Source of the DNA: a virus
Virus genome (UHGV): UHGV-0120658
DNA: 39,443 bases
Strand: one strand, 5' to 3'
Below are positions 603 to 36,629 of this stretch, piece after piece. Made by a program: the position numbers and the translations under genes. Positions within the stretch are counted from its first letter, which is position 1. Each line of letters starts with the position of its first letter. The notes under the pieces were generated by a model. It saw nothing but the letters and a program-made list of their open reading frames with translations. It was not told where the DNA came from and did not search any database.

Positions 603-616
603 AACAAAAAACCCAT
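603..616. repeat. Candidate attL core (14-bp direct repeat, copy 1)
   Basis: aacaaaaaacccat is exactly repeated at 36616-36629; each copy is followed by a different hairpin. Confidence 0.4.
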
Positions 617-635
617 TTATGTAAATGGGTTAATG

Positions 636-669
636 AAAACAATAAGTTAGATTAAAAACAATAAGTTAG
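636..669. repeat. Tandem 15-bp direct repeat aaaacaataagttag x2 (candidate Int arm-type or IHF sites)
   Basis: Perfect copies at 636-650 and 655-669 (19-bp period) lie between the candidate att core and int. Function is inferred. Confidence 0.3.
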
Positions 670-710
670 GTTGGTGGTCAGTGGTGGTTATTACGGGGTA
701 ATGCCAACCG

Positions 711-730
711 CTGCCGCCACTTTGTCGCCA
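711..730. repeat. 20-bp direct repeat copy 1 (alternative attL core, or arm-type site)
   Basis: ctgccgccactttgtcgcca matches ctgccgccaatttgtcgcca at 36541-36560 in 19 of 20 positions. Confidence 0.4.
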
Positions 731-736
731 CTTGTT

Positions 737-1006
737 TTACCTTAAACGCCAGGGGCCTCTATCTTCAATCTGTTCGACTAACCCCTCCTCTTCTAGTTCA
801 CGCAATAGTGCAACAACCCAATATTGTTGGTTCGAACTTGTTGCTTTCCGTTTTTCTCCCCAATCGAGGCCGCTTAGACGAAATACCTCAGCTTGCTTAA
901 CGCCGTTGCCGTTTTTTTGGGCATCTGGGTGAGTTTTAAGTACGGATAAAGCCAATTCTTTGGCTCTGTTGCGCAATTCCGCTCCCTGATGCTGAAACTT
1001 ATTCAT
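737..1006 (-). CDS. Hypothetical 89-aa protein next to the att site
   Basis: ORF co-oriented with int, in GC-normal sequence; family not recognised. Confidence 0.4.
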   Translation of the reverse strand: MNKFQHQGAELRNRAKELALSVLKTHPDAQKNGNGVKQAEVFRLSGLDWGEKRKATSSNQQYWVVALLRELEEEGLVEQIEDRGPWRLR

Positions 1007-1064
1007 TGATAGTGCTCCATGTGAAAAAAAAGAATATTAGCTCAACAGGGCAAAATACGCATTT

Positions 1065-2096
1065 TCAAAAACTTGCTATTGATGTTGGTAGTGTTGCCAG
1101 CGGATTAAACCGTAATGCAGTTTCCAGGTGATCCGGTGCCAGATGTGCGTAACGCATAGTCATTTTTATATCGTGATGCCCGAGAATTTTTTGTAAGGCC
1201 AGGATATTTCCACCCGACATCATGAAGTGCGCCGCAAACGTATGGCGCAGAACGTGTGTCAGTTGACCGCGAGGGAGCACGATAGACGTTTTTTCCATCA
1301 CGGATAAAAATTGAAAATAGCAGTCTGTAAAGAAATTGAACCCATCAAGCGCCATGATCTCTTCGTAAAGCTCTTTACTGATAGGGATGCTTCTGTTTTT
1401 CTTCCCCTTCGTTCTTACAAAGGTAATTCGGTATTTGGTCACCTGTGAGCGGGTAAGATTTACGGCTTCACGCCAACGTGCGCCTGTGCTTAAGCATATC
1501 TTAACTACCAGTGCCAGAATTGGGTCCTGACGTTTGCAATCAGCCAGCAATTCAACAATCTGCTCATGGGTAAGCCATGCCATCTCTTTTTCTGCGATGG
1601 TGAATTTTCGCATGTTCTCCAGTGGGTTTGGATACGACCATTCGCCCAGGCGGGATAGTTCGCTAAAAACACTACTTAGATAGCTTTGCTCCAGGTTAAT
1701 GGTGACCGGGCTGGCTCCTTTCTTCCATTTCTCGCTGAAGTAGATCTCACCTGTCAGGCGTTTATCTCGATAGTGGGCAAACATTTTAGAGGTGAGATTG
1801 GTTGCAAGAGGATTGCCTAGAGCGTCAACCATCAGCAGCAATTTGTCATAGACATGCTGCCCAGCAGTCAGAGATTTACCATGTAATTTGAACCATAGCT
1901 CAACCACGTCTTTCAGGGTTCGACGATCCACTGATTCGCCCAGCCAGGGCTTTGATTCGGTTTCTTCCATCGTGTGACGCTCAAAAGCCAGTGCTTCGCC
2001 TTTGGTGGCGAATTGTTTACGCACACGACGCCCACTACGTCCGGCGGGGTAACATTCGCAAAGCCATTTTCCTGTGGTGAGTTTTCGTACTGCCAT
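1065..2096 (-). CDS. int: Tyrosine integrase (P2 Int-like)
   Basis: N-terminus MAVRKLTTGKW aligns with remembered P2 Int MAIKKLDDG; C-terminal catalytic signature LRHTFA...GHHDIKMTMRYAHL (R, H-x-x-R, Y). Start chosen at the ATG at 2094-2096, with GAGGG RBS 8 nt upstream on the minus strand. Confidence 0.9.
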   Translation of the reverse strand: MAVRKLTTGKWLCECYPAGRSGRRVRKQFATKGEALAFERHTMEETESKPWLGESVDRRTLKDVVELWFKLHGKSLTAGQHVYDKLLLMVDALGNPLATNLTSKMFAHYRDKRLTGEIYFSEKWKKGASPVTINLEQSYLSSVFSELSRLGEWSYPNPLENMRKFTIAEKEMAWLTHEQIVELLADCKRQDPILALVVKICLSTGARWREAVNLTRSQVTKYRITFVRTKGKKNRSIPISKELYEEIMALDGFNFFTDCYFQFLSVMEKTSIVLPRGQLTHVLRHTFAAHFMMSGGNILALQKILGHHDIKMTMRYAHLAPDHLETALRFNPLATLPTSIASF

Positions 2097-2122
2097 AAAA
2101 AAAGCCCTCATATCAGAGGGCT
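2097..2122 (-). terminator. Hairpin plus U-run just upstream of the int start (candidate terminator for the repressor-orf314 transcript)
   Basis: Stem agccctc (2103-2109) pairs with gagggct (2116-2122), 6-nt loop; on the minus strand it is followed by TTTTTT (2097-2102). Confidence 0.4.
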
Positions 2123-2124
2123 AA

Positions 2125-2153
2125 ATTTAACTGTATATAAAAACAGTATTCAA
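2125..2153 (-). promoter_or_regulatory. Candidate sigma70 promoter for int with a LexA box filling the spacer
   Basis: Minus strand reads TTGAAT (2153-2148), 17-nt spacer, TTAAAT (2130-2125). The spacer 2131-2146 is CTGTatataaaaACAG on the plus strand (CTGT-N8-ACAG). Confidence 0.45.
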
Positions 2154-2187
2154 TGTATTTTTTACTTAGGAGCATACATGTTCATGA

Positions 2188-3132
2188 TTAATCTGTTTCT
2201 TTATCACTTCCAGTTACTTTAACTTTGTCTTTGATTGTATTCACAAATGACGCAAAGCTCGGTGGTTGCTCTGTCTGACCTGAAAATGCAGAGTCACCTG
2301 AAATATTCCAATCCTTAAAGACTTCTATTGCATCCTCTTTAGTTGCTGTAGAACCGTATATCTGCAAAAAAACTTGACCAAACATCAAAGCATGTCGACG
2401 ATCTTTTCGCCTGATCGATTCATGTGTGTACTTTTTTGAGTTACTAAGGCAGATATATGATAGCCATGAAAGAATGGCGATTCCAACTAATCCTCGCGTG
2501 AAGATATATATTAACTGAAGGTTAGTGAGATTTTTTAAATCTAAGTTCATGTATAATGTAAAAAAAGCAGATACTACCGCAAGGAAGCCAAAAAATACCC
2601 CAGCAATAGACCAGATAATAGACATCAATATAAAATGTTTGTCATCACTAGCAAGATCTGATTTAACATCGTTAACATAGGTAGGGATTTTTTCATCGAT
2701 TCTTTGTTGCTGTACTTGGCTACGGAGTTCCTTATTTTCACTAATCAATGAATTAACTTGTTTTACATTTTTTTCGATTATTGCGTTTTTTCTATTAATA
2801 TCCTGAGTATAATGCTCTAACTGTAGAGTTAATATGCTGTTTCGTTCTTCTAATTGTATTATATGTTCTACATAATTATTAGGTTCAAGTGATTTTACAT
2901 TTTTTCTTTTATTAGTTTCATTTTCATTTATATTGGGTTCTTCATCCATCGCTGGCCTAGTTATGTATTTTTCAATTAGTGCTAGGTTATTATGAGCTTC
3001 AGAAAACTCTCCTGCTTCTATTAAGTTTTTTATATGAGAGTAGAAGTGTTTTGCTATATTTTCAGACTGTGAATCAAGAAAGTCTAATAGGTGTTTTTTT
3101 ATTTCGCTATCTTTATTGGTTGGTTCAGTCAT
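2188..3132 (-). CDS. Hypothetical 314-aa coiled-coil membrane protein (two predicted TM helices); cargo in the lysogenic operon
   Basis: AT-rich ORF between repressor and int on the same strand. Heptad-rich N-terminal half, two hydrophobic helices (ILMSIIWSIAGVFFGFLAVVSAFFTLYM and LQLIYIFTRGLVGIAILSWLSYICL, about 2446-2631), soluble C-terminus. Start codon 12 nt after the repressor stop. Confidence 0.6.
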   Translation of the reverse strand: MTEPTNKDSEIKKHLLDFLDSQSENIAKHFYSHIKNLIEAGEFSEAHNNLALIEKYITRPAMDEEPNINENETNKRKNVKSLEPNNYVEHIIQLEERNSILTLQLEHYTQDINRKNAIIEKNVKQVNSLISENKELRSQVQQQRIDEKIPTYVNDVKSDLASDDKHFILMSIIWSIAGVFFGFLAVVSAFFTLYMNLDLKNLTNLQLIYIFTRGLVGIAILSWLSYICLSNSKKYTHESIRRKDRRHALMFGQVFLQIYGSTATKEDAIEVFKDWNISGDSAFSGQTEQPPSFASFVNTIKDKVKVTGSDKETD

Positions 3133-3143
3133 GATGTTTCTCT

Positions 3144-4079
3144 TTATATATTTTTAGTAAAAACTCTTTTACATTTTGCCAAAACGATAATGTCAGTAAG
3201 TAAGCATTCAAAACTTGTGTTAGTGCCTACAACTTTAACCATACCAACGGGTATGCGAGTCAAATCTTTGATGCTTATTTTCCCTTCAATATTCACAAGC
3301 CACTTGCCATCAGTAACTTCATTAAATTTTGATTCTACAATATATATTTCCTCATCAATGAATACTGCTAAAGGTTGCAGAAAGGTTCCTTCTAACAACT
3401 TAGAGTCAAAAGTCAAGACGGTTTCTTGAGCAAGAGATCCATCAATTATTTTATGATATGGGATAGTGATAGTATTGATTCGAGGCTTTTCAAACATTGC
3501 CCCGTTACCAGTGGTTAGCCATGTTAATGAAGCACCAGTTTCCAGTGAGCATTGAATAATCCAGTCAGCAGGAAAGGTATCTCTCATGTAACGATTGGCT
3601 AATGTACTTTTTGATACACCAATATGATCAGCTAAAGCTTGTCTTGTCTTAAATCCATAAGCCAAAACGATTCGCTCTATTGCTGCTTTTCCGCCTTGGT
3701 TAATAGTAAAAAAGTTCTCATTTTGGATGTCTTGTTCTCTATTGAGATGTTGATGCTTGCTGTCACAATTGTTGTGACTTTTTTCTGCATTATTTGTAAT
3801 GCTTCCCTTCTCGGTATCAGTGCCAAATGCCAACCACTCGACCGGCACTCCAGTCTCCATGCTACAGATAACAACCCAATCAGCAGGGAAAGTGTCACGG
3901 GCATACCTGTTCGCCATTGTACTTTGCGATATACCTAGGTGATTACAGAATGCTTGTCGGGAAGAAAAACCATAGGCTTTCAGTATCCGATCTATAACCG
4001 ATTGCCCTCCGCGATTCTGCATGATTAAGGATTTCTTTTTTTCGTCCACATGGCGAAATGTGATTTCGTGTGTTGACAT
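3144..4079 (-). CDS. Prophage immunity repressor with two tandem CI-type HTH domains and a C-terminal beta-rich domain
   Basis: Residues about 24-86 and 129-191 are about 59% identical repeats (AYGF..RQA...G.S.ST.ANRY.RDTFPADW...CS.ETG...WL..G), resembling the phage CI N-terminal HTH. Divergent from the Apl-like gene across the 4080-4167 intergenic region. Confidence 0.7.
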   Translation of the reverse strand: MSTHEITFRHVDEKKKSLIMQNRGGQSVIDRILKAYGFSSRQAFCNHLGISQSTMANRYARDTFPADWVVICSMETGVPVEWLAFGTDTEKGSITNNAEKSHNNCDSKHQHLNREQDIQNENFFTINQGGKAAIERIVLAYGFKTRQALADHIGVSKSTLANRYMRDTFPADWIIQCSLETGASLTWLTTGNGAMFEKPRINTITIPYHKIIDGSLAQETVLTFDSKLLEGTFLQPLAVFIDEEIYIVESKFNEVTDGKWLVNIEGKISIKDLTRIPVGMVKVVGTNTSFECLLTDIIVLAKCKRVFTKNI

Positions 4080-4167
4080 AACCGATTTGTGATCCTATTC
4101 TCCGAAATGTGAAGTTGAAGCCACGATTAAAACTGACTCACCACAAGCCAATAGGAGATGTTGCATC
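4080..4167. promoter_or_regulatory. Divergent switch region (lytic and lysogenic promoters and operators expected)
   Basis: Intergenic region between the divergently transcribed repressor and Apl-like gene; contains TGTGA-type motifs. No operator or promoter was resolved. Confidence 0.3.
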
Positions 4168-4389
4168 ATGACCCCTAACATTTCAATAACCCTGAATACG
4201 CCACATGTCACAATTGAGCGTTATAGCGAACTTACTGGTCTTTCAATCGACACAATTAACGATATGCTGGCTGACGGTCGCATCCCTCGGCATCGCCTTC
4301 GGAAAGACAAGAAAAGAGAAAAGGTGATGATCAACCTTGCTGCTCTTACCGTTGATGCACTTACTGATTGCAATGTTGTATTCAACTAG
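4168..4389 (+). CDS. Apl/Cox-like excisionase-type HTH protein
   Basis: 73-aa ORF, first in the rightward early operon, with HTH-like segment [25 protein letters not shown]; AGGAG RBS upstream. Confidence 0.6.
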
Positions 4390-4421
4390 TTCCATTTTGG
4401 GATACATCAGGGGTGTCGACC

Positions 4422-4931
4422 ATGTTTGATTACCAAGTTTCCAAACATCCACATTTTGATGAAGCCTGTCGTGCATTCGCATTGCGCCACAACCTGGTGC
4501 AACTGGCAGAACGTGCTGGCATGAATGTGCAGATTCTGCGGAACAAGCTGAACCCAGCTCAACCTCATTTATTAACCGCACCAGAAATCTGGCTGCTTAC
4601 CGATCTGACTGAAGATTCAACGCTGGTAGATGGTTTTTTGGCACAGATTCATTGTCTGCCATGTGTACCGATTAATGAGGTGGCAAAAGAGAAACTGCCA
4701 CATTACGTCATGAGTGCAACCGCAGAGATCGGGCGTGTTGCTGCAGGTGCGGTATCTGGCGATGTAAAAACCAGTGCAGGTCGTCGTGATGCCATCAGCA
4801 GCATTAACTCTGTAACACGACTGATGGCACTGGCTGCTGTTTCATTGCAGGCCCGTTTACAGGCTAACCCTGCGATGGCGAGTGCAGTTGATACCGTAAC
4901 TGGCCTCGGTGCTTCATTCGGTTTGCTGTGA
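4422..4931 (+). CDS. cII: CII-like lysogeny-establishment activator (coliphage 186 CII homolog)
   Basis: 169-aa product starting [45 protein letters not shown]; recognised from memory as very similar to 186 CII. Start ATG at 4422. Confidence 0.75.
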
Positions 4932-4938
4932 GGTGCTT

Positions 4939-5235
4939 ATGCTGACGAAAGAACCATCATTTGCATCGCTGCTGGTAAAACAAAGCCCGGCAATGCACTA
5001 CGGTCACGGCTGGATCATGGGTGAGGATGGTAAACGCTGGCATCCATGTCATTCACAAGATGAATTGCTGTCTGAATTGACCACGAGGAAACGGAGAAAG
5101 TCAAAATGTATGCAGCGGAAAGTGAAGTGGTTTATCAGTTTCGTTACAGAGGGGAAAGTTATTCAGTACCTGAAGATGATTTGCTCTGTTGTTATCCGTC
5201 GTTGTCGGGCGATGGCAGTTACTTTTTCACGCTAA
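4939..5235 (+). CDS. Hypothetical early protein (ORF possibly extended by a frame problem)
   Basis: ATG at 4939 with GAGGTG RBS. The first ~55 aa look protein-like; the C-terminal part overlaps the next ORF in another frame and looks low-complexity. Confidence 0.3.
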   Translation: MLTKEPSFASLLVKQSPAMHYGHGWIMGEDGKRWHPCHSQDELLSELTTRKRRKSKCMQRKVKWFISFVTEGKVIQYLKMICSVVIRRCRAMAVTFSR

Positions 5236-5330
5236 GGGATGGGACGTTTTTACGGGGAGAGCAGGTTAAAGAAACGATACGAAAAAATGTATCTCCTCTT
5301 GAACGTTACCGTAAGAACAAAGAACGATAG
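5106..5330 (+). CDS. Hypothetical early protein (74 aa)
   Basis: ATG at 5106 with GGAG RBS 8 nt upstream; overlaps the previous ORF out of frame. Confidence 0.45.
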   Translation: MYAAESEVVYQFRYRGESYSVPEDDLLCCYPSLSGDGSYFFTLRDGTFLRGEQVKETIRKNVSPLERYRKNKER

Positions 5331-5352
5331 TTGCGTTTTGGGGATATGAATT

Positions 5353-5694: not shown

Positions 5695-5761
5695 CCAATA
5701 AATAAAATTCATGGCGTAAACCCGCCGGGCATCCCTTTATCTAAATTCAGGAGAATTGATT

Positions 5762-9597: not shown

Positions 9598-9640
9598 TGG
9601 TTATACATACAGTATTGCGTGTGGTGTCATAGGAGGAAAG

Positions 9641-9829
9641 ATGCAGGACTATTTTTTGGAGTCTTTGAAGCTCCAGCGCATTGATTTTTTTCTTAAGCTT
9701 GTAGCGGCTAGTGAGTGTAGTGATGAAGAGAAGGGGCTGGCTCTGCAGTGGGTTTCTGAATTGACTGATGAACTCATGGCAAAAATCAGAACCCACGAAT
9801 ACAACCGCTCAATGGATGTCATCAGCTGA
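9641..9829 (+). CDS. Small 62-aa protein in the LexA-controlled module (candidate antirepressor partner)
   Basis: ATG at 9641 with AGGAGG RBS, immediately downstream of the LexA box. Function inferred from position. Confidence 0.45.
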   Translation: MQDYFLESLKLQRIDFFLKLVAASECSDEEKGLALQWVSELTDELMAKIRTHEYNRSMDVIS

Positions 9830-9839
9830 GGTGACTTTT

Positions 9840-10073
9840 ATGCGCATTGAAATAATGATCGATAAAGAGCAGAAGATTAGCCAGTCTACCCTGGACGCCC
9901 TTGAATCCGAGCTTTACCGCAATCTGCGCCCCCTGTATCCCAAAACGGTAATTCGCATTCGCAAAGGTAGCTCTAACGGTGTGGAACTAACCGGACTGCA
10001 ACTGGACGAAGAAAGAAAACAAGTGATGAAAATTATGCAGAAGGTGTGGGAAGACGACAGCTGGCTGCATTAA
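9840..10073 (+). CDS. DinI-family protein (Tum/DinI-like SOS module)
   Basis: 77 aa MRIEIMIDKEQKISQSTLDALESELYRNLRPLYP...KIMQKVWEDDSWLH resembles E. coli DinI (MRIEVTIAK...ETWESADDWF); GAGGTG RBS. Confidence 0.65.
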   Translation: MRIEIMIDKEQKISQSTLDALESELYRNLRPLYPKTVIRIRKGSSNGVELTGLQLDEERKQVMKIMQKVWEDDSWLH

Positions 10074-10383: not shown

Positions 10384-11463
10384 GTGGCGTTATCAGATGC
10401 GTTAATTACAGTAAATCAAGCCGAACGGGGCGGTGAAAACGCGTTGAGAGGCTTTTCATATCAAGCCTCTTGGGGGATAAATTATTTACTTGAGAAACAA
10501 AAAGAAAAGGAGAAATATTTATTTCTATTTGAATATCATGACGATATTCTTGTATTGAATTCATCTGTTTCTCCGACTAGTGCTGAGTTTATCCAAGTTA
10601 AAACAAAAAAAGATGGTAAATGGACACTCGCAGCAATAGTGAACGCAACAAAAGCTAAACCTAAATCATTTGTTGCAAAACTATATGACCATTTCTATCA
10701 ATTCGTTGGTCACGAAATTTATATGGTTCTGTTATCGAATGCTGGATTCGATTTCTTAAATGATAATAACGAAAAAGGTAGTGATCTTAATAATGAGCAT
10801 AAGGAAATTATAATTAGTAAGGTTCAAGAGCAGCTAAATACTAAAAAAGAAGTTCCTCTTGATAAAATAAAATTTAAAACATCTGATCTTAGTTTGTTAG
10901 ATCCTAACTCACATTTATACGGGAAAGTTGCAGTTTTTTTGAATTCTTACTTTGGGGATGATCATGGTATTAATTCAACAGCATTCACTAAATTATTAAT
11001 CAATAAGTGTAATGAGAAGGTTAGTGTTGCTTCTAGTGATATCAAAACTTTTGAAGATTTAGTACTAAAGAAAGGTATATCTTCAGAATTTGTAACTGAT
11101 TTATTATCTGGACTCATTGCAAGCATAAAAATAACGCCAAAATGGGAACAGGTTTGTATGTTGCTTGGTACTTTCTCAGATCCTTATGAGGGGATTAAAT
11201 TACAATCAGTTTTTACACGCATATCAATAAAAGTGCTCAATGTCAATTCAATATACTATCTTTATTTTCTGGAATTTCAATCGGCTCTAAAGAGTATAGA
11301 GCATTATCGTGAGATACCTGTTCGAGACCTCTTCTTTACACTCGAAAAAACAATTGCAGCGGGGGACGGGGATTTCTCTTTATTAAATCAAGAAGAGAAA
11401 TTTATGATTGCTATATATGCAATTATAAAGTTGACTTTTGAGGATGTTTCTTATGAAGAATAA
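10384..11463 (+). CDS. Candidate defence effector: PD-(D/E)xK nuclease of the Cap4/DUF4297 type (LmuA-like)
   Basis: AT-rich gene; N-terminal GFSYQ, then FEYHDDILVL...AEFIQVKTKK, i.e. a D...QxK restriction-endonuclease-like catalytic core (about 10540-10602). GTG start with AGGGA RBS; 11-nt overlap with the downstream ATPase gene. Confidence 0.55.
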   Translation: MALSDALITVNQAERGGENALRGFSYQASWGINYLLEKQKEKEKYLFLFEYHDDILVLNSSVSPTSAEFIQVKTKKDGKWTLAAIVNATKAKPKSFVAKLYDHFYQFVGHEIYMVLLSNAGFDFLNDNNEKGSDLNNEHKEIIISKVQEQLNTKKEVPLDKIKFKTSDLSLLDPNSHLYGKVAVFLNSYFGDDHGINSTAFTKLLINKCNEKVSVASSDIKTFEDLVLKKGISSEFVTDLLSGLIASIKITPKWEQVCMLLGTFSDPYEGIKLQSVFTRISIKVLNVNSIYYLYFLEFQSALKSIEHYREIPVRDLFFTLEKTIAAGDGDFSLLNQEEKFMIAIYAIIKLTFEDVSYEE

Positions 11464-13111
11464 CGTTAAATTTAAAAATATAAAAATACTCTCATTAAGA
11501 GACAGAAAAGCTTTTTCTTATGAGTTTTCAGAAGGGGTTAACTTCATATATGGTACAAATGATGTTGGTAAATCAAGCCTGATTAAAAGTCTTTATTACA
11601 CATTAGGTGGAGATTTAAGGCTTGATGATGCTTGGAAATCAGATGATATAGTTACACTGGTGGAAATTAATAACGGGGAAAATGATTTTATTTTTTTGCG
11701 TTATAAAAAGATTATTGGTGTCTTTGATTTGAAGAATGATGATCTAGTCGTGTATAACACGATTTCGTCATTAGCATCTCGTGTTTCAAATATATTTGGT
11801 TTTAAACTGGAATTACATAATAAATATACGGGTGCTACGACTCAGGCAAACCCTGCTTGTTTGTTTGCCCCATTCTTTATTGATCAGGATGAAGGATGGA
11901 AAGCGGTGATAAATTCTTTCGAAAACATGAGTATGTACTCAGAATGGCAAAAAAACATTCTTTACTATCACTCTGGAATTAAGCCAAAGGAATATTATAC
12001 AGTTCAAGGGAAAATCAAAGAAATTAAAGTTAAAATTTCAGAGTTAGATGGTTTTGTTAAGGTTCTAAAAAGAAGCAAAAGTAAGATTGATGAATCTTTT
12101 GGCGTGGTTTTATTTGATGTTGATTTGGATTTTTATAAATCAAAGTTGGAACGTATATTAAATGAATATTCTAATTTAAATTTAGTTCAGACAGAATATA
12201 GATTGAATCTTTTGAGGTTATATTCTAGGAAGAATTTCCTTGAGAGTGAACTCAAAGAGATAACTGCGATTATTGATAATGAATTTGAGATTTCGAATTT
12301 TCGAGATGATAATGTTGCTTATTCAGTAAATGAATATAATTATATAAACCATAGAGATGAAATGCTCAAAAACATTGCTGTTCTTGCAGATGAGAAAAGC
12401 AAGATTGAGGAAAATATTCCTAAATTGAATCAAAAGCTAGAAGAGTCAAGGGCTGCTTCAGAGGCGTTGCAGGCGCTGATTTTAGAAACTCAATCGGAAA
12501 TAACGCTTCATGATGTTATTAAATCTGCCGCATACCATGAAATTGAATCTACTTTTATTTCACAGTTAGATGAGTTATTCGTTGAGATTGGTCGAAAAGA
12601 AGGCGAGTTGACAGAATTACAAGAAGAATTAGAAGTATACAATGATAAGAAAAGAACTGTTAAAATAAATGACTGTTTCAAAGAGTATTTCGCTAAAGCT
12701 CTTAAAGAGCTTGGTGTCGAAAATACAAAGGTAGGTGGCCTTAGTAGTTATAATAATATTACTAAGGGTAAGACTGGTAGTCGAGGTCCTCGAGGTATAT
12801 TTGCATTTCACTACGCGCTGCTTAGTGTTATGAAAAGCAACTCTTCAGTTGAGAATATGCCTATAGTAATAGACTCTCCAAAGCAACAAGATTTGGATCC
12901 AGAGCATACGCATAAGCTTATAAAACTATGCTTGGATGGGTTTTCCCTTACAAATCAGATTATTATTGGAACTGTTGGTTATGAGAGTTTCATGGATGGT
13001 TTTAATAGCATCAAACTTGAAAATAAATATCATCTTTTAAATGATGAACATTATGATAATGTTTATTCTCAATTAATGCCATTGTTTGAACGGGTGATAC
13101 TTTCAAGATGA
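11453..13111 (+). CDS. Candidate defence ATPase: SMC/Rad50-like coiled-coil ABC ATPase (LmuB-like)
   Basis: Walker A GTNDVGKSS near the N-terminus (about 11552-11578), long central heptad-rich region, C-terminal Walker B-like PIVIDSP. ATG at 11453 overlaps the upstream stop (11461-11463). Confidence 0.55.
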   Translation: MKNNVKFKNIKILSLRDRKAFSYEFSEGVNFIYGTNDVGKSSLIKSLYYTLGGDLRLDDAWKSDDIVTLVEINNGENDFIFLRYKKIIGVFDLKNDDLVVYNTISSLASRVSNIFGFKLELHNKYTGATTQANPACLFAPFFIDQDEGWKAVINSFENMSMYSEWQKNILYYHSGIKPKEYYTVQGKIKEIKVKISELDGFVKVLKRSKSKIDESFGVVLFDVDLDFYKSKLERILNEYSNLNLVQTEYRLNLLRLYSRKNFLESELKEITAIIDNEFEISNFRDDNVAYSVNEYNYINHRDEMLKNIAVLADEKSKIEENIPKLNQKLEESRAASEALQALILETQSEITLHDVIKSAAYHEIESTFISQLDELFVEIGRKEGELTELQEELEVYNDKKRTVKINDCFKEYFAKALKELGVENTKVGGLSSYNNITKGKTGSRGPRGIFAFHYALLSVMKSNSSVENMPIVIDSPKQQDLDPEHTHKLIKLCLDGFSLTNQIIIGTVGYESFMDGFNSIKLENKYHLLNDEHYDNVYSQLMPLFERVILSR

Positions 13112-13151: not shown

Positions 13152-14186
13152 TTAAATTTTTAGTTCGTAGGTTGAAAAATTTATAATTCTATCGTTTAAC
13201 CAATTATTTATTTCTAGAAACATTTTTTGTAGAGGCAGTAGCTCATTTCGTACAAATACTGTGCTTGCCTTTTCGATATCCCCAAACCCCCCGACATTAT
13301 TAGGCATTATCCCCATCATTTGTGGCGGCACACGATGCGCCGCCATCATGTCGTCCCGGCTCACGTTCTTGATATTCAGGAACTCATCCTTCGCCGCCAC
13401 TTCTGACAACGGGATAATCTGAAGCCCGTCCTTTTTACCGTTAGGCGAGTACATAAACAGGTTACGGAAGTTACCAGGACCTTTGGCGCTTTTCATCGCA
13501 TTGCGGAGGTTGTTCACATCCTCCTGGTTCTGCGCAGCATCGGTCATGTACATGATGAAGCCTGCATGACTGCCGTTAATGTAATACTTGCGGCGGAACA
13601 GCGTGGCGGACTCGTTGAGCAGAGCTGACGGAATGGCAGAAAGATAACCGGGCAGGCCGTAGATCTCCTGGTTAATGTCCGGTTCCATCAGATGAAAAAT
13701 GCTGCCTTTCGTGAACTGATACGGCTGGGTTGTCATACCGTATTGCACAAACCAGTAGGTATCCAGGTCTAACCCGCGTCGGGTGTATTTTGCCAGCGCA
13801 GGCTCAAGGGCGATAACTTCACCGAATCGGTTCGTGCGTTTCTCCAGGTAGGCGTTACCAAATACCAGATAGTCCAGCACAAAACGCGAAAAAGCCTGCT
13901 GGCTGAGAAGCGGGTGAGGGATGTAGGTGCTGGTCAGAATGTTGCATTTCACTGCAATTGGTGAACTGTGATGCACGGCAGCGCGGAAGGTGCGCGCCAG
14001 TCCGTCAAAGCTGACGGGAGGCTCATACCAGCGATCTGTCTGTACGCATTCCACATAGTCCAGCAGTTCGCGGCGGTCAAGTACTGGAATGGGATCACCG
14101 AAGCTGAATGCTTCGGCTGAAGCTTGGCTTTTATGCTGGATCTGGTTCGTCGCCGCAGCGCGTTTTTTTTTACTCTTTCCCATCAA
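13152..14186 (-). CDS. Q: Portal protein (P2 gpQ-like)
   Basis: 344 aa, same length as P2 Q; sits next to the terminase gene in the conserved Q-P leftward operon. Confidence 0.85.
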   Translation of the reverse strand: MMGKSKKKRAAATNQIQHKSQASAEAFSFGDPIPVLDRRELLDYVECVQTDRWYEPPVSFDGLARTFRAAVHHSSPIAVKCNILTSTYIPHPLLSQQAFSRFVLDYLVFGNAYLEKRTNRFGEVIALEPALAKYTRRGLDLDTYWFVQYGMTTQPYQFTKGSIFHLMEPDINQEIYGLPGYLSAIPSALLNESATLFRRKYYINGSHAGFIMYMTDAAQNQEDVNNLRNAMKSAKGPGNFRNLFMYSPNGKKDGLQIIPLSEVAAKDEFLNIKNVSRDDMMAAHRVPPQMMGIMPNNVGGFGDIEKASTVFVRNELLPLQKMFLEINNWLNDRIINFSTYELKI

Positions 14187-21522: not shown

Positions 21523-21614
21523 AGATTCATGCTTTTGCTAGCTTCTACAAGGTTTTATGCTTCTAAACACTGTATGTTTAATTTGACATATAACTATTTG
21601 TACAAGCGGTGAGT

Positions 21615-22838
21615 ATGAAAAAGCAAGATGAGTCCCCCAAAGCTGATAAATCAAATTTAGATAAAAGTGAGTCTGAACCACCAAAAGCGAACTCTATGGC
21701 AGATGCCATGGCCATAGCGGCAGAGGTTGCTACGACAGCAACGTCAGTTCAAACATCAACCTTTGCAATTATCGCGGATTTTCTACGTTCAGGTGGTATA
21801 GAAAAACTAACTTCAAATGCTATCAAAAATTTAGAAATAAAAGTAAAGGGCCATTCTCAAGCGACAAGAACTACGGTATTGAGGAACCTGAAGACCTCTT
21901 TCAAAGAGGAGAATTTAGTTCTTGTTTTAGGTGCTGGCATTTCTTTAGATTACAGCATACCAACATGGAGTGAATTATTAAAGCGGCTATTGGCAAGAGC
22001 TTTGGATGATAAAAATGAAAATCAGAAAATGGTATCGGTTTTGTTTAATGAGGTTTTCGGTCCGAACGCACTCATAGCAGCCAGATATCTAAAACTACAC
22101 TTTGATGGTATTAATACTCCCTTGGAAAAAGAAATTCAGCATGTTTTGTATGAATATTATCAGGAGGAAGAAAGCAGTACATTGAAAGCAATCAAGAAAT
22201 TGTGCATATCGGCAGGCAAGTCACCAGGTCTAGATTCCGTTATTACATATAACTATGATGATATTTTGGAACAGACATTAACTAGAGCTGATGTTTGTAT
22301 AAAGTATAAGGTGATTTCAAAGACGGGACAGCATGCAAAAAATGATGAACTGCCGATCTACCATGTGCATGGCTATCTCCCATTGCAGGGGAAAGTTGAA
22401 CTCGATGACACGCTAGTCCTTTCTGATGAAAGCTATCATAGGCAATACATGGATTTATACCATTGGAGCAATATGGTTCAGTTGAATAAATTCAAAGATG
22501 GAAATTGCCTGTTTGTTGGTCATTCCTTTACAGATCCAAACCTCAGAAGGTTGATGGATACAGCCAAAAAACTTAGAGGGAATGATTCTAAACCTCATTA
22601 TTTAATTAAGTGTAGACATTCGAAAGAAGATGTGATTGCTAATATTCAAAGAATTGTTAGTGACTCAAGAAATGGATTTGATAATAAACTGAATATTAAT
22701 GAGGATGCAATCGCGACCTCTCTTTTACAGACAGTGCATACTTTTGAAGAAATCGATGCTAATTCATTTGGCGTGAATGTTATTTGGATCGACTCTTACG
22801 ATGAGATTGCACCAATACTTAATGATCTAACACAATAA
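21615..22838 (+). CDS. Standalone SIR2-like (SIR2_2 family) protein; candidate NAD+-depleting defence effector
   Basis: AT-rich gene between S and V. Motifs in family order: LVLVLGAGISLDYSIPTWSELL (GAGIS at 21930-21944), ITYNYDDILE, IYHVHGYL, LVLSDESYHRQY, CLFVGHSFTDPNLRRL. About 100-aa charged N-terminal extension. The track ORF starts at GTG 21609. Confidence 0.65.
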   Translation: MKKQDESPKADKSNLDKSESEPPKANSMADAMAIAAEVATTATSVQTSTFAIIADFLRSGGIEKLTSNAIKNLEIKVKGHSQATRTTVLRNLKTSFKEENLVLVLGAGISLDYSIPTWSELLKRLLARALDDKNENQKMVSVLFNEVFGPNALIAARYLKLHFDGINTPLEKEIQHVLYEYYQEEESSTLKAIKKLCISAGKSPGLDSVITYNYDDILEQTLTRADVCIKYKVISKTGQHAKNDELPIYHVHGYLPLQGKVELDDTLVLSDESYHRQYMDLYHWSNMVQLNKFKDGNCLFVGHSFTDPNLRRLMDTAKKLRGNDSKPHYLIKCRHSKEDVIANIQRIVSDSRNGFDNKLNINEDAIATSLLQTVHTFEEIDANSFGVNVIWIDSYDEIAPILNDLTQ

Positions 22839-26884: not shown

Positions 26885-27487
26885 ATGGAACAGGTTATTT
26901 TGGGAAAAGACGGTTACGCTTTAAATGATGGGGAAATCATCGTACATAACTATGATGGCGAAACGCGGGAATATATTTCCACATCAACTGAATATCTTGC
27001 GGTTGGCGTCGGTATCCCGGCATGTTCTTGTTTAGATGCACCAGTTACACATAAAGCTGGTTATACAATTTGCCGTTCTGTGGATTTAAAATCATGGGAA
27101 TATGTGTCAGACCATCGCGGTGAAATCGTCTATAACACCGAAACGGGAGACGCCAAAGAAATCACAGCTCCGGGTGATTACCCTGAAAATACAACCACTA
27201 TCGCCCCATTAACGCCATACGATAAATGGGATGGTGAGAAATGGGTGACCGATACTGAGGCACAGCATCGCGCCGCAGTAGACGCGACAGAAGCACAGCG
27301 TCAGTCACTGATTGATACTGCAATGGCTTCCATTAGTCTGATTCAACTGAAATTACAGGCCGGGCGGAAACTGACGCAGGCAGAAACAACCCGGCTTAAC
27401 GCTGTGCTGGATTACATTGACGCGGTGACGGCAACAGATACCAGCACCGCGCCGGATGTCATCTGGCCTGAACTGCCGGAGGAGTAG
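26885..27487 (+). CDS. G: Tail fibre assembly protein (P2 gpG-like)
   Basis: 200 aa after H; its C-terminus resembles that of the alternative Tfa on the other strand. Confidence 0.8.
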   Translation: MEQVILGKDGYALNDGEIIVHNYDGETREYISTSTEYLAVGVGIPACSCLDAPVTHKAGYTICRSVDLKSWEYVSDHRGEIVYNTETGDAKEITAPGDYPENTTTIAPLTPYDKWDGEKWVTDTEAQHRAAVDATEAQRQSLIDTAMASISLIQLKLQAGRKLTQAETTRLNAVLDYIDAVTATDTSTAPDVIWPELPEE

Positions 27488-27899
27488 GCCATTCAATATC
27501 TGGTGCACTGGAAGTATCGACCAGCTCCAGTGCGTCCAGATAATCCAGCCACAAATTATATTGCGCCAGTTCCTCACCTTTCAGACGACCAATTGATGCT
27601 TTACCTGGCCATTGTTTACTGTTGATGTATTCGTTGGCCTGGTTAATCAATTGCTGCTTTTTAGTTTCGGCTGATGCAATTTGTTCTTCACGTGTTGGTG
27701 GAGGAACATCTGCCCAAGCTGGCATTCCGTCGCCTGCGGTAATTCTGCGCTTACCTTCGGGCGGCGTGTCATAGAAATATTCCCTGAAAATAGCTTCGTC
27801 TATATCCACGCCTTTACCTTCGGGCCATTGGCCTTTTGCAGCGTAAACAGACTGGAGGGCATAAGGGTACGCCAGATTATCAACATACAAATATTTCAT
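27459..27899 (-). CDS. Alternative tail fibre assembly protein (tfa'), inverted orientation
   Basis: 146 aa on the minus strand, convergent with and overlapping G; C-terminal SAPDIEWPTPP parallels TAPDVIWPELP in G. Confidence 0.7.
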   Translation of the reverse strand: MKYLYVDNLAYPYALQSVYAAKGQWPEGKGVDIDEAIFREYFYDTPPEGKRRITAGDGMPAWADVPPPTREEQIASAETKKQQLINQANEYINSKQWPGKASIGRLKGEELAQYNLWLDYLDALELVDTSSAPDIEWPTPPAVQAR

Positions 27900-27901
27900 A
27901 A

Positions 27902-28231
27902 TTAACGCCCTTTCGCGTAGAAGGCTCCACCTTCAAAGCCATAGTTACAATGAGCAACGAAACCTGTTTTCGTCCAGTTAGTTGCGCCCCACATATTCCC
28001 ACCACCAAAACCGCCGTCATATACAATCACTACGTCTGGCTCCTGCGTAAAAGGAATGGTGAAAGTCACATTTGTAGATACCGCCGCGGCGTTATTCGGG
28101 AAATTAATTCTTCCCCACTGTTCAATTGAACCATCAGGCAATTTTTGCCAGCCAGATCCTGATGAATAAGCTGACATATCAGGTATCTGATTTTCCCCTG
28201 TCCCTACATCCCGTTTTGCCGCCTCTCCCAA
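27902..28231 (-). other. Promoterless alternative tail fibre C-terminal cassette (H'), expressed only after inversion
   Basis: Minus-strand ORF with no ATG, starting at the right inversion site; in frame with the H constant part across the shared GLGE crossover codons. Confidence 0.65.
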
Positions 28232-28248
28232 ACCAACCTTTGAAAATG
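28223..28248. repeat. Right inversion site (inverted copy)
   Basis: CTCTCCCAAACC-AA-CCTTTGAAAATG; the core TCTCCCAAACCAA (28224-28236) is the exact reverse complement of TTGGTTTGGGAGA (26388-26400). Confidence 0.6.
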
Positions 28249-28270
28249 GTCACCTATATAGGTGACCATT
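28245..28270. other. Perfect 26-bp palindrome AATGGTCACCTATATAGGTGACCATT (terminator or protein-binding site)
   Basis: Exact reverse-complement symmetry; sits between the orf140 stop and the right inversion site. Confidence 0.5.
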
Positions 28271-28274
28271 CGGG

Positions 28275-28697
28275 TTAATGCAGCGTTGTAGTTGAGCTGG
28301 ACTCTGCCATTGCCACTGTCAATTCATCGCCTTCGGCTGAGATCTTAATGGTATTACTTCCTTCTGATTTAGCGCCTTTTGGTAGACCTAGCTGATCATA
28401 GATACACAAGAATCTTGAATCATTTATAAAGGTGATTTCTGTTACAGTCCCACCTTCAACGACCTTAGAGTCTATTGATTTTATCAAATTGATATCCTGA
28501 ACATTAATGTGCTTTATCGCATCCCAGTTAAGGCTGATGTCCACGTTATCCTTTTGCATCGTTATCACATGACCGGCCTTATGCTGGGTTGTGACTTTTC
28601 CATCAGGGCTCATCGTAATCTTTTGCCCCATGTGATAAATAATTTGAGTTCCGTCTTCGAGACACTCGATTTTTGGCTCTTTAGTAAAGTCGTTCAT
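28275..28697 (-). CDS. Hypothetical 140-aa protein at the Z/fun-equivalent position
   Basis: AT-rich ORF between the invertible segment and the invertase gene; no recognised motif. Confidence 0.5.
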   Translation of the reverse strand: MNDFTKEPKIECLEDGTQIIYHMGQKITMSPDGKVTTQHKAGHVITMQKDNVDISLNWDAIKHINVQDINLIKSIDSKVVEGGTVTEITFINDSRFLCIYDQLGLPKGAKSEGSNTIKISAEGDELTVAMAESSSTTTLH

Positions 28698-28902
28698 GAA
28701 AATCCTTCAATTATCTGTTGCTGGAAGGTGCTAATCTACACGAATCCTTGGTTATGTATGTAATGAGGCTCTAGAAATCCACTTGAATATAAATAAATTT
28801 TTATGGTGTTGGCTTGTAATGCTCGCGTAGCTCTTTGTCAAAAGTGAAACTCTGATAACCTGGTTCTACTGACGAACAGAAGGATGAGCAGGAGATCGCT
28901 TT

Positions 28903-29463
28903 ATGATTATTGGGTATGCACGAGTATCAAGTAACCATCAGGACACCGAGCTTCAGATGCAGGCGCTCAGAGCTGCTGGCTGTAAGTTAATTTTTGAGGA
29001 AAAGGCTTCTGGCCGTAAGACGAATCGACCAATCTTGAAGAAAGTGGTTGAGATGCTTGAACCCGGTGACGAACTGGTCATCTGGAAGTTAGATCGTATC
29101 GGTCGCAATGTACTGCACGCATTATTGACCTTTCAGAGCCTCGCAGAACGCAATGTTAATATTCGTTCTATTACAGATGGCGTTGACCTGAGCACTGCCA
29201 GTGGGCGCTATAACTTCCGTAATATTCTCTCTGCGGCACAATATGAGTCTGATCTGAATAGTGAACGCACTCTGGCAGGGTTAGCGGTTGCCCGCGCTAA
29301 GGGGAGGATTGGCGGACGTAAGCCTAAGTATACTGATGAGCACTGGGATGCGTTTGAACGGGAAATTAAGTCCGGCTGCTCACATCGTGATATAGCTCTC
29401 AAATATGGGGTCGGCCTGTCGACTCTCTACAAACGTTATCCGCCTCAGCAAGAGCATCACTAA
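28903..29463 (+). CDS. Serine recombinase, DNA invertase (Hin/Gin/Pin/Cin family)
   Basis: N-terminal catalytic domain MIIGYARVSSNHQDTELQMQAL with the active-site serine in RVSS; C-terminal HTH. Confidence 0.85.
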   Translation: MIIGYARVSSNHQDTELQMQALRAAGCKLIFEEKASGRKTNRPILKKVVEMLEPGDELVIWKLDRIGRNVLHALLTFQSLAERNVNIRSITDGVDLSTASGRYNFRNILSAAQYESDLNSERTLAGLAVARAKGRIGGRKPKYTDEHWDAFEREIKSGCSHRDIALKYGVGLSTLYKRYPPQQEHH

Positions 29464-30864: not shown

Positions 30865-30873
30865 GGGGACACC

Positions 30874-31389: not shown

Positions 31390-31400
31390 TTAACCTTAAC

Positions 31401-31418
31401 GGCGCGGGAAGCCGCGCC
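31401..31418 (+). other. GC-rich stem-loop between FII and E (weak terminator or attenuator)
   Basis: ggcgcgg / gaag / ccgcgcc, followed by only a weak T tract. Confidence 0.25.
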
Positions 31419-31443
31419 AGTATTTCATTAACAGGAAACGAAC

Positions 31444-31746: not shown

Positions 31747-31880
31747 CGGTTGATGATCTGGTGGCAGATATTGCCACCATCTTTCACTGGTCGCCGTCCA
31801 TCACTGACGTTATGCCGCTGACTGATGTGCTGGAGTGGCGGCATAAGGCAATTCAGAGAAGCGGGGCCAGCGATGAGTGA
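31444..31880 (+). CDS. E+E' fusion made by a programmed -1 frameshift
   Basis: After a -1 slip at TTTTTTG the reading frame continues (FFVAEVGACRFADNLTVDDLVADIATIFHWSPSITDVMPLTDVLEWRHKAIQRSGASDE) to the TGA at 31878-31880, overlapping the T start. Same arrangement as P2 E/E+E'. Confidence 0.6.
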
Positions 31881-34650: not shown

Positions 34651-35132
34651 TGATGGTGCTGGGGTTATATGTCTTCATGTTGCGTACAGTGCCATATCAG
34701 GAGCTGCAGTATCAGCGCAGCTGGCGACACGCTGCGAACAACCGGGTGAACCGTCGTCCGTCAACGCAGTTCCTTGGGCCGGATAATGACTCGCTCACGT
34801 TATCTGGCGTACTGCTGCCGGAAGTCACCGGCGGCAGGCTGTCATTGCTGGCGCTGGAGTTGATGGCGGAGCAGGGAAAAGCCTGGCCTCTGATTGAAGG
34901 AAGTGGAACCATTTACGGTATGTTTGTGATTGAAAGTCTGAGCCAGACCAAAACGGAGTTTTTTGCAAGCGGCATGCCTCGACGCATTGAGTTTACGATT
35001 ACCCTCAAACGGGTTGATGAGTCGCTGTCTGACTTGTTCGGGAGCCTGAGTGACCAGCTGAGCAACCTGCAGGATTCTGCAGCCTCTGCAGTTGGGGGAA
35101 TTAAAAACACAGTTGGAGGATTGCTGCAGTGA
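34647..35132 (+). CDS. U: Tail protein U (P2 gpU-like)
   Basis: 161 aa; ATGA overlap with T. Confidence 0.8.
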   Translation: MMMVLGLYVFMLRTVPYQELQYQRSWRHAANNRVNRRPSTQFLGPDNDSLTLSGVLLPEVTGGRLSLLALELMAEQGKAWPLIEGSGTIYGMFVIESLSQTKTEFFASGMPRRIEFTITLKRVDESLSDLFGSLSDQLSNLQDSAASAVGGIKNTVGGLLQ

Positions 35133-36229
35133 ATTTTAATTCTGATCTCCTGAACCTTAACAGCAAAAGCCCGGCTTTCAGTATCACCATTGAAGGTAAG
35201 GACGTGACTGCCGCGCTGGATGCGCGTCTGATGAGTCTGACGCTCACCGATAACCGGGGTTTTGAAGCGGACCAGCTTGATCTGGAGCTGGACGACGCCG
35301 ACGGGCAGATCGTTCTGCCGCGACGTGGTGCCGTTATTCAGCTGGCGCTGGGATGGAAGGGCCAGCCGCTTTTCCCAAAAGGGGCCTTTACCGTGGATGA
35401 GATTGAACACACTGGCGCACCGGACCGCCTGACTATCCGGGCGCGAAGTGCTGATTTTCGTGAAACGCTGAATACCCGCCGTGAAAAGTCGTGGCACAAG
35501 ACCACCGTCGGGGAAGTGGTGAAGGAAATAGCTGTGCGGCACAAACTGAAGATGGCATTGGGTAAAGACCTGTCAGATAAACCCGTGGAACATATAGACC
35601 AGACCAATGAGAGTGACGGCAGTTTTCTGATGCGGCTGGCGCGCCAGTACGGTGCTATTGCGTCGGTGAAAAATGGCAATCTGTTATTCATCCGGCAGGG
35701 ACAGGGTAAAAGCGCCAGCGGTAAACCACTACCGGTGATCACTATCACACGTAAGGACGGCGACAGTCACCGCTTTACCCTGGCAGATCGCGGAGCCTAC
35801 ACGGGCGTAATTGCCAGCTGGTTGCATACCCGCGAACCCGCGAAGAATGAAAGCACCACGGTGAAGCGTAAGCGCAGGACTAAGAAGCAGAAGAAAGAGC
35901 CGGAAGCGAAGCAGGGCGATTACCTGGTGGGTACAGATGAAAACGTGCTGGTACTTAATCGCACCTATGCCAACCGGAGCAATGCCGAACGGGCGGCGAA
36001 AATGCAGTGGGAACGCCTGCAACGCGGCGTTGCGTCATTCTCGCTACAACTGGCAGAAGGTCGGGCAGATCTCTACACGGAAATGCCAGTGAAAGTCAGT
36101 GGCTTTAAACAGCCGATAGATGATGCGGAATGGACCATTACGACTCTGACGCATACCGTCAGCCCCGATAACGGTTTTACAACCAGTCTGGAGCTTGAAG
36201 TGAGGATTGATGATTTCGAAATGGAATGA
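35129..36229 (+). CDS. D: Tail protein D (P2 gpD-like)
   Basis: 366 aa; GTGA overlap with U; last gene of the tail operon, before ogr. Confidence 0.8.
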   Translation: MNFNSDLLNLNSKSPAFSITIEGKDVTAALDARLMSLTLTDNRGFEADQLDLELDDADGQIVLPRRGAVIQLALGWKGQPLFPKGAFTVDEIEHTGAPDRLTIRARSADFRETLNTRREKSWHKTTVGEVVKEIAVRHKLKMALGKDLSDKPVEHIDQTNESDGSFLMRLARQYGAIASVKNGNLLFIRQGQGKSASGKPLPVITITRKDGDSHRFTLADRGAYTGVIASWLHTREPAKNESTTVKRKRRTKKQKKEPEAKQGDYLVGTDENVLVLNRTYANRSNAERAAKMQWERLQRGVASFSLQLAEGRADLYTEMPVKVSGFKQPIDDAEWTITTLTHTVSPDNGFTTSLELEVRIDDFEME

Positions 36230-36319
36230 TTCTTCGCAATGGAGAACTTTTAAGTTTGCAAAATGGAATAATGCGGTATCATTATTGTGAATTTAGCAAA
36301 AATGGGGAGAACTCGAAAA

Positions 36320-36538
36320 ATGATGATTTGCCCACTGTGTGGAAGTGCCGCCCATACTCGCAGCAGTTTTCAGGTATCTTCATTGACCAAAGAGCGTTAC
36401 AACCAGTGCCAGAACATTAACTGCAGCCATACTTTTGTTACCCATGAAACTTTTGTTCGTTCGATTGCAACGCCAAAAGAGTCAAATCCGGTTCAGCCGC
36501 ATCCAATGAAATCAGGACAGGTGGCGCTCTCTCTTTGA
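36320..36538 (+). CDS. ogr: Late-gene transcriptional activator Ogr (zinc finger; 186 B homolog)
   Basis: 72 aa MMICPLCGSAAHTRSSFQVSSLTKERYNQCQNINCSHTF with CxxC...CxxxxC, aligning with remembered P2 Ogr. Confidence 0.85.
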   Translation: MMICPLCGSAAHTRSSFQVSSLTKERYNQCQNINCSHTFVTHETFVRSIATPKESNPVQPHPMKSGQVALSL

Positions 36539-36540
36539 CT

Positions 36541-36560
36541 CTGCCGCCAATTTGTCGCCA
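36541..36560. repeat. 20-bp direct repeat copy 2 (alternative attR core, or arm-type site)
   Basis: ctgccgccaatttgtcgcca, 19/20 identical to 711-730. Confidence 0.4.
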
Positions 36561-36615
36561 TCGTTAAAAAACAGCGCTTCTAACATCATGATTTTAAACG
36601 GCATAAATTTCAGGC

Positions 36616-36629
36616 AACAAAAAACCCAT
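36616..36629. repeat. Candidate attR core (14-bp direct repeat, copy 2)
   Basis: aacaaaaaacccat, identical to 603-616. Confidence 0.4.

Follow-up and report, generated by a model that had tools for sequence, protein, structure and literature searches.

The stretch of viral DNA analysed here (UHGV-0120658, 39,443 nt; hereafter the window) carries, with a probability that we place at about 90%, a 36.0-kb 186/P2-like prophage (phage DNA 617-36615) integrated in the 3′ end of the small RNA (sRNA) gene rybB, between the host genes rcdA and ybjL, by way of a 14-nt attachment (att) core and tandem pairs of arm-type sites for its integrase (Int). The DNA between the terminal repeats is that of a P2-like prophage with a 186-type immunity region, and the D gene and ogr are located at its right end. 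The crossover core is the 14-mer AACAAAAAACCCAT; its position and the reciprocal junctions were observed in the sequences compared. The annotation of the prophage is thereby clean, with boundaries fixed to the base and the true target named as the rybB 3′ end. About one in five complete E. coli genomes has a prophage of this family at rybB, and a complete attP map is now available for the family. Coordinates of the features are collected in Table 1.

An initial annotation of this DNA had reported two direct repeats at the prophage ends as competing core candidates, and both exist as described. The 14/14 repeat, AACAAAAAACCCAT, is found on the + strand at 603-616 and 36616-36629 and nowhere else in the window; allowing one mismatch at most, 2 matches are observed, with 0.04 expected from shuffles. 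The 19/20 repeat, CTGCCGCCANTTTGTCGCCA, occurs only at 711-730 and 36541-36560, also on the + strand (2 matches at up to two mismatches; 0.00 expected from shuffles). The 14-mer is the perfect portion of an imperfect repeat of 27 nt, 24/27 of which are identical, and the 20-mer is better taken as 22 nt, that is, as a tandem pair of 11-bp units. On the reconstructed phage circle, 55 bp lie between the left pair and the core (75 bp start to start). Between the core and the right pair there are 95 bp if the 11-bp units, at 712, are taken as the limit and 94 bp if the 20-mer, at 711, is; these values agree with the distances of about 75 and 95 bp previously given for the circular phage.

All counts for E. 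coli refer to a set of 5,426 complete genomes. Homology to the left flank of the window stops in them either at position 616 or at about 734, and homology to the right flank starts at 36603 (in one case, at 36588); in prophage-free genomes, homology on the left ends at 616. Alignment to a prophage-free, K-12-like genome revealed the empty rcdA-ybjL site, which reads ...TAGATAACAAAAAACCCAT|CAACCTTG... (also given as ...TTTTAGATAACAAAAAACCCAT|CAACCTTGAACC...). It holds one 14-mer at the junction and no 20-mer, in support of the 14-mer as core, the reading that the initial annotation had preferred. A synthetic empty site with the 14-mer as core (317-616 joined to 36630-36929) was matched at 100% coverage and 100% identity, and at least 80% of it was covered in 4,295 of the 5,426 genomes. 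The occupied junction, D-ogr-attR-rybB-ybjL, is carried by about 1,115 genomes, so that empty and occupied sites together account for 5,410/5,426. The left end of the window, through position 1100, is common to only 208 genomes.

When attB, attP (from phage KP12), attL and attR were arranged in a four-way junction table, they formed an exact reciprocal set. The three mismatches located 5′ of the 14-mer within the 27-nt repeat stay host-type at attL and phage-type at attR, and strands were thus exchanged inside the 14-mer. Contiguous attP sequences were found in two phage genome records. In that of the Klebsiella phage KP12, ogr, a first pair, the core, a second pair and int are contiguous, and the sequence is 97% identical to the reconstructed attP, the junction of which reads ...TTTCAGGC-AACAAAAAACCCAT-TTATGTAAATGGG. 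The virome phage ESSI2_ev129 has the same layout, its P′ arm being 76% identical to that of the window. In both records, 164 bp separate the two arm pairs and the 14-mer lies between them.

The second repeat would correspond, as the initial annotation had suggested, to arm-type sites of the integrase. It has been reported that P2-like phages use two classes of arm sites, the P2 type tgTGGaCa and the 186 type tgccGCCActt, and that residues at the N-terminus of Int discriminate between them, being Y/D/R in the P2 type and W/E/Y (W16/E19/Y21) in the 186 type (Nilsson et al. 2011, PMC3448106). The first unit of the P′ pair, TGCCGCCACTT.TGTCGCCACTT, is identical to the published 186-type consensus; the P-arm pair reads TGCCGCCAATT.TGTCGCCATCG. 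The GenBank record of 186 lists “predicted” Int arm-type sequences with the consensus YAYCGCCAYTY, of which attP has three on its left and two on its right, and each arm of 186 contains one tandem 11-bp pair, CACCGCCATTC.TATCGCCACTC and TACCGCCACTT.TATCGCCATTC. A regular expression for the tandem pair (two units 11 bp apart) matches only the two 20-mers in the window, where 0.01 matches are expected, and only the two annotated places in 186. The match to the 186-type consensus, the tandem structure, the orientation and the position all support the assignment; sequence, layout and spacing are those of the 186 type, and Int would be expected to bind both pairs.

The integrase encoded in the window shows the catalytic residues R..HxxR..Y in its translation (ARWRE, HVLRHTF and RYAHL). 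Its N-terminus contains the 186-type discriminators, GKWLCECY (W..E.Y) where 186 has GGWICELY, and almost all Ints associated with the arm pair retain the W..E.Y motif. Identity is 98% with the Ints of KP12 and 4LV2017, 55% with that of 186, 49% with that of HP1 and 39% with that of P2. In phages with the same pair but other cores, Int's core-binding domain is 39-49% identical and the N-terminal domain 57-72%, GKWLCECYP being kept; a heterobivalent integrase would be expected to show just such a combination, of a constant module for the arms with a variable one for the core.

The exact pair is also kept in diverged arms that were chosen by flank homology, namely those of L003 (left arm), L004 (right arm, with a spacer 55% identical), L008 and ESSI2_ev129. 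The P-arm spacer is 55 bp long in 26 of 27 distinct spacers, four of these being only 51-56% identical to that of the window. All four largely keep a TAAC-N4-TGATT block, and three also TTTCAGRC, a block beside the core that is kept in 25/27 distinct spacers. Homology to other rybB prophages breaks at 732-734, right after the P′ pair. A scan of IMG/VR with the exact pair as pattern gave 120 loci, in which the independent information lies in the position of the pair, the neighbouring cores and the co-varying Int domains, conservation of the pair itself being there by construction. In these loci, the pair is located about 95-100 bp from differing cores: rybB variants, the SdsR/RyeB 3′ end (Rfam), tRNA-Ile, the core type of 186, and other tRNA 3′ fragments. 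ARAGORN found no full tRNA beside the tRNA-type cores, as expected if attP carries 3′ fragments alone. Related prophages could be delimited automatically with the help of these rules for arm pair, spacer and core (55, 14 and 95 bp, the pairs being separated by 164 bp).

Two further observations were made on these loci. An identical arm pair, TGCCGCCACTTTGTCGCCA, serves phages with an SdsR/RyeB core (ryeA/ryeB locus; L012 1-215, L025, L043, L048, L058, L060, L077 and L106), and the SdsR/RyeB 3′ end is a second sRNA terminator used as att site by this group of integrases. Four IMG/VR loci of 10.7-13.1 kb (L014, L030, L081 and L074) have two arm pairs separated by only some 8-11 kb; prophage remnants left by deletion, or small elements with the same attP arms at their ends, are possible explanations.

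Sites resembling the consensus for integration host factor (IHF) are located between the arms and the core. Both AAAACAATAAGTTAG repeats of the P′ arm match the consensus WATCAANNNNTTR at 12/13 positions (matches at 637 and 656), as does the site in the P arm. The 218-bp attP thus contains 3 such matches, where 0.24 would be expected locally, and relatives conserve them; taken by itself, a match to the consensus carries little weight. Equivalent AAWCAAnnnnTTA pairs are seen in P′ arms beside rybB, sdsR and most tRNA-type cores, and the TAAC-N4-TGATT block of the P-arm spacer is IHF-like on the minus strand. On local density and conservation, we consider them candidate IHF sites. As to the excisionase, a GGTGGT repeat with a 10-bp period (at 673 and 683) is found where 186 has its Apl operators; no matching motif was found at pR-pL, and no periodic repeats were seen in the switch region (4080-4167).

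Several points weigh against this organization of attP. The arm sites of 186 are themselves labelled “predicted” in its GenBank record, and arm-site function in the phage studied here is predicted from sequence. The units carry G at position 2, where the 186 consensus has A (10/11 match), and the second P-arm unit ends in TCG instead of CTT. The IMG/VR loci were selected by the exact pair, which builds its conservation in, and the P′ pair shares sequence with the last int codons of KP12-like phages (encoding GDKVAAA), where a coding constraint could explain part of its conservation. The IHF consensus is not enriched window-wide (43 found, 38 expected), and comparison of the P′ arm (632-711) with pR-pL (4080-4167) yielded no convincing shared operator motif for an excisionase, trivial 6-mers being all that they have in common.

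It could be argued that the 14-mer is the core, but that the 20-mers are kept for a reason other than serving as Int arms: the coding of the Int tail, a site for another protein (excisionase, CI or Ogr) or a patch of homology for module exchange. The P′ pair of KP12-like phages does sit within the last 12 int codons, and homology between rybB prophages breaks at the pair (732-734) as it would at a module boundary. Nevertheless, the P-arm pair is never coding, and the P′ pair is exact despite 285-721 bp of cargo before int (window, L003, L036, L044, L066, L074 and L128), a layout shared by 186. The pair is, besides, the published Int arm consensus, it is accompanied by an Int with the matching N-terminal discriminator residues, and its distance from the core, fixed even where the spacers are unrelated, argues for a function in the recombination complex. 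We judge such other roles unlikely and favour arm-type sites. As regards a third, inverted P-arm unit like that of 186, the candidate CGCCACC (minus strand, 36521-36527, inside ogr) was rejected as a chance occurrence, because inspection by eye revealed no CGCCA-type unit at that place in three diverged relatives (L004, L074 and L090).

The 20-mer could also be proposed as the crossover core, the 14-mers together with 617-710 and 36561-36615 being then host DNA duplicated by coincidence. It is the longer repeat (19/20) and, as a core would, it stands in direct orientation at both ends. However, the synthetic empty site built on it (431-730 joined to 36561-36860) is covered to at least 80% in 0/5,426 genomes, against the 4,295 obtained for the 14-mer junction. 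K-12-like genomes have no 20-mer at the site, KP12 and ESSI2_ev129 hold both 20-mers on either side of the 14-mer and 164 bp apart, and the same 20-mer adjoins unrelated cores. The 20-mer as att core, which we hold to be extremely improbable, was consequently rejected, and the competition between the two repeats is settled for the 14-mer. That both repeats are chance similarities, with the true prophage boundaries elsewhere, has nothing in its favour except the shortness of the 14-mer and is of negligible probability in view of the shuffle expectations given above and of boundaries that fall, to the base, at the points where homology breaks off in thousands of genomes.

For a core at the 14-mer and arm-type sites at the 20-mers, a mechanism can be proposed by analogy with 186, P2 and lambda. 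Int would bind both arm pairs with its N-terminal domain, whereas its core-binding and catalytic domains would act at the core. IHF, at the IHF-like sites between arms and core, would probably bend the DNA, and one Int multimer would bridge arm and core. Strand exchange would occur within AACAAAAAACCCAT, the exact cleavage points being likewise those expected from the phages mentioned. Integration would restore rybB at attR and leave a mimic of its terminator at attL, and the Cox/Apl-like protein would direct excision, presumably by acting at the P′ arm.

RybB is a sigma-E-controlled regulator of outer-membrane proteins. At attR, its gene matches Rfam RF00110 with 105.3 bits (gathering score, 40) over model positions 1-79 of 79, it ends exactly at 36616, and its fold includes an intact 12-bp terminator stem. 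In terms of RNA, the core consists of AUGGG, the 3′ half of the terminator stem, followed by the U-tail (UUUUUUGUU), and constitutes the final 14 nt of RybB. Because the phage carries its own copy of the core, rybB is rebuilt intact at attR; RybB is full-length there and is left intact in lysogens. The prophage is thus one that entered a small stable RNA gene at its 3′ end and regenerated it. The site had initially been described as rcdA-ybjL, with the right 14-mer completing an intact ybjL terminator. The prophage does lie between these two genes and the hairpin is intact, but the target is more exactly the rybB 3′ end, and the hairpin is the rybB terminator (Rfam RF00110, 105 bits) and not one dedicated to ybjL. 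Terminator calling gave nothing else between the stop codon of ybjL and rybB, so that the rybB terminator may also end ybjL read-through.

A look-alike of the rybB terminator, completed by phage DNA, is present at attL. The hairpin comprises 9 bp, including the duplicated core (-9.4 kcal/mol, z -2.4), and is the sole terminator-like call in 500-1100. Its probable role, in the attP of the free phage as in the attL of the prophage, is that of terminator of the int operon, whose transcripts would receive a RybB-like 3′ hairpin and U-tail.

The arm pair would form the functional limit of attP. In KP12, as in the majority of relatives, int reaches into the P′ pair; in most relatives, its end is located within -18 to +28 bp of the pair. 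In the window, an 89-aa open reading frame (ORF) without matches in Pfam, PHROGs or PADLOC is inserted between them, and the insertion changes the Int tail from the KP12-like ...PLATLPSGDKVAAAVGITP to ...PLATLPTSIASF (...SGDKVAAAVGITP in KP12 versus ...TSIASF in the window). The occurrence of this left end in 208 genomes suggests that the altered Int may be tolerated. Different inserts, made up of varied DNA and 285-721 bp long, are located there in at least eight other lineages and also in 186 (orf69); loci that can be compared are L005 2692-2735, L003, L036, L044, L066, L074, L128 and L009 21157-21408. The cargo hotspots usually cited for P2-like phages are two, tin/old and Z/fun. That the boundary between the P′ pair and int is a further, recurrent cargo-insertion slot of 186/P2-like phages, distinct from those two, is a tentative proposal to which we give clearly less than even odds.

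Table 1. Features of the prophage, its attachment sites and the flanking host genes, in window coordinates.
Feature	Position	Strand	Remarks
att core copy, attL	603..616	.	Host to the left, phage to the right; prophage-free homology ends at 616
att core copy, attR	36616..36629	.	Last 14 nt of rybB: 3′ half of terminator stem (ATGGG) and U-tail, minus strand
Extended imperfect core, attL	590..616	.	27 nt, 24/27 identical to 36603-36629; mismatches 5′ of the 14-mer, host-type
Extended imperfect core, attR	36603..36629	.	Phage-type left part (..TTTCAGGC); candidate core-type Int site
P-arm tandem pair of putative 11-bp arm-type units, TGCCGCCAATT.TGTCGCCATCG	36542..36563	+	3 nt past the ogr stop codon
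P-arm units (putative)	36542-36552 TGCCGCCAATT; 36553-36563 TGTCGCCATCG	+	Each 9/11 against the GenBank 186 consensus
P′-arm tandem pair of putative 11-bp arm-type units, TGCCGCCACTT.TGTCGCCACTT	712..733	+	186-type consensus match
P′-arm units (putative)	712-722 TGCCGCCACTT; 723-733 TGTCGCCACTT	+	Each 10/11 against the GenBank 186 consensus
Two direct repeats AAAACAATAAGTTAG(A/G)TT, 19 bp apart	636..672 (636-653, 655-672)	+	Candidate IHF (H′) sites
IHF-consensus-like site in P arm, between arm pair and core	36581..36593	-	12/13
Phage-completed hairpin AACCCATTTA-CA-TAAATGGGTT, then core T-tract	610..631	-	rybB-terminator look-alike
rybB sRNA gene, intact at attR	36616..36694	-	Rfam RF00110
int, tyrosine integrase, 186-type N-terminus (MAVRKLTTGKWLCECYP)	1065..2096	-	Pfam Phage_integrase 7e-22, Int_N 2.5e-32
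89-aa cargo ORF between P′ pair and int	737..1006	-	No family match
CI, 186-type	3144-4079	-	Left end
Cox/Apl-like excisionase-repressor	4168..4389	+	phrog_575, E 1e-31
ogr/B-type late activator, last phage gene before attP	36320..36538	+	Pfam Ogr_Delta; KP12 annotation
rcdA, host gene at attL flank	50..586	+	RefSeq annotation of matching genomes
ybjL, host gene upstream of rybB	36774..38459	-	Right-hand host flank

Other genes of the window deserve mention. A Lamassu defence pair (10384-13111, + strand), with the replication region on one side and the portal gene Q (13152-14186, - strand) on the other, is made up of LmuA, a Cap4-type nuclease (PADLOC E 4e-143), and LmuB, an SMC-like ATPase (E 9e-254). 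The retron Ec86 also sits between replication genes and cos. That retron is carried by the rybB prophage of E. coli B (PMC3032704). A 409-aa ORF with a SIR2 domain (21609-22838, + strand; Pfam SIR2_2 1e-19, with weak PADLOC matches to ThsA and LmuA-SIR2) is flanked by apparent tail-completion (S-like) and baseplate (V-like) genes, as judged by P2 gene order, and is a candidate single-gene defence cargo. To our knowledge, the slot that it occupies is not among the usual hotspots of P2. A Hin/Cin-type serine invertase (28903-29463; Resolvase and HTH_7) adjoins opposite ORFs for a tail-fibre C-terminus and assembly (27459-28697, - strand), and the region 27459-29463 is probably an invertible host-range segment. 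Between int and CI, a 314-aa ORF (2188-3132, - strand) matches phrog_2628, of unknown function (E 9e-220), with faint Pfam hints of a membrane protein; it is probably another accessory (moron) gene. Finally, a DinI-family ORF (9768-10073, + strand; Pfam 1e-22) stands at the position of Tum, the SOS-dependent antirepressor of 186, and this position suggests SOS-inducible induction of the 186 type.

The att system described here is an ordinary one, already described as to both its rybB target and its arm consensus, and it entails no new biology. P2-like prophages, Rybb*B/W/Cr, have been reported at rybB in E. coli B, W and Crooks (PMC3032704), rybB is “hotspot #29”, with Felsduovirus prophages in 109 genomes (PMC10121019), and the Klebsiella prophage Kpn38RybB targets rybB as well (PMC4048246). 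The integration site is the same as in these rybB prophages, the Klebsiella phages 4LV2017 and KP12 included (Int 98% and attP 97% identical), and attL and attR are already marked at the same core in the record of 4LV2017. The cargo differs from that of other rybB prophages and consists here of Lamassu, the SIR2 ORF and the 89-aa ORF. The att identity is of 19 nt in Klebsiella (CAGGC plus the 14-mer; phage 4LV2017) and of 14 nt in E. coli. The phage-side CAGGC matches the flank of the Klebsiella attB and not that of E. coli, which is TAGAT (L006 1-30 and 33420-33445, compared with window 598-616 and 36611-36629). On account of this match, the attP looks better fitted to Klebsiella; the prophage is nonetheless common in E. 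coli.

Phage 186 (NC_001317) shares with the prophage the order B(ogr), P arm, core, P′ arm, (small ORF), int and cI. In both, the arms each hold two tandem 11-bp units centred on CGCCA and directly oriented, the P′ pair is about 95-100 bp from the crossover, and the phage regenerates a small stable RNA gene whose 3′ end serves as the core. Common to them are also the W..E.Y motif at the Int N-terminus and the 186-type immunity, with CI and a Cox/Apl-like excisionase. In the attP of 186, int and a “predicted terminator of lysogenic operon” lie on opposite sides of the core and are separated by integration; the GenBank record of 186 gives IHF footprints on both sides of the core. The differences begin with the target, which is the sRNA gene rybB here and tRNA-Ile (ileY) in 186, and with the length in common with the E. 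coli attB (14 nt here, 36 nt in 186). The gap from the P pair to the core is 55 bp here and about 105 bp in 186, there is no convincing third, inverted P-arm unit here, and position 2 of the units is G instead of A. The two Ints are 55% identical overall but 43% in the core-binding domain, and the Apl operator repeats of 186 are not recognisable in the window.

The core of P2 is 27 nt long; here, a 27-nt stretch is 24/27 identical between the two prophage ends. As in P2, the integrase is of the heterobivalent tyrosine type, the order is ogr-attP-int, each side has two direct arm repeats, and imperfect attP/attB identity is tolerated outside the exchange region. The Int is only 39% identical to that of P2, and both the arm consensus and the Int discriminators are of the 186 type, in contrast to tgTGGaCa and Y/D/R (PMC3448106). 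P2, moreover, integrates next to cyaR and not in rybB (PMC3032704). With respect to lambda, the mechanism proposed would be the same, the N-terminal domain of Int acting on the arms and the C-terminal domains on the core, with bending proteins that join them. Lambda Int and attP operate with arm-type and core-type sites, IHF and Xis. The arm sequences are unrelated to those of lambda and differently arranged, and no arm-binding domain of the lambda type was detected by Pfam in the Int of the window; the resemblance is thus an analogy of mechanism and not membership of the same family.

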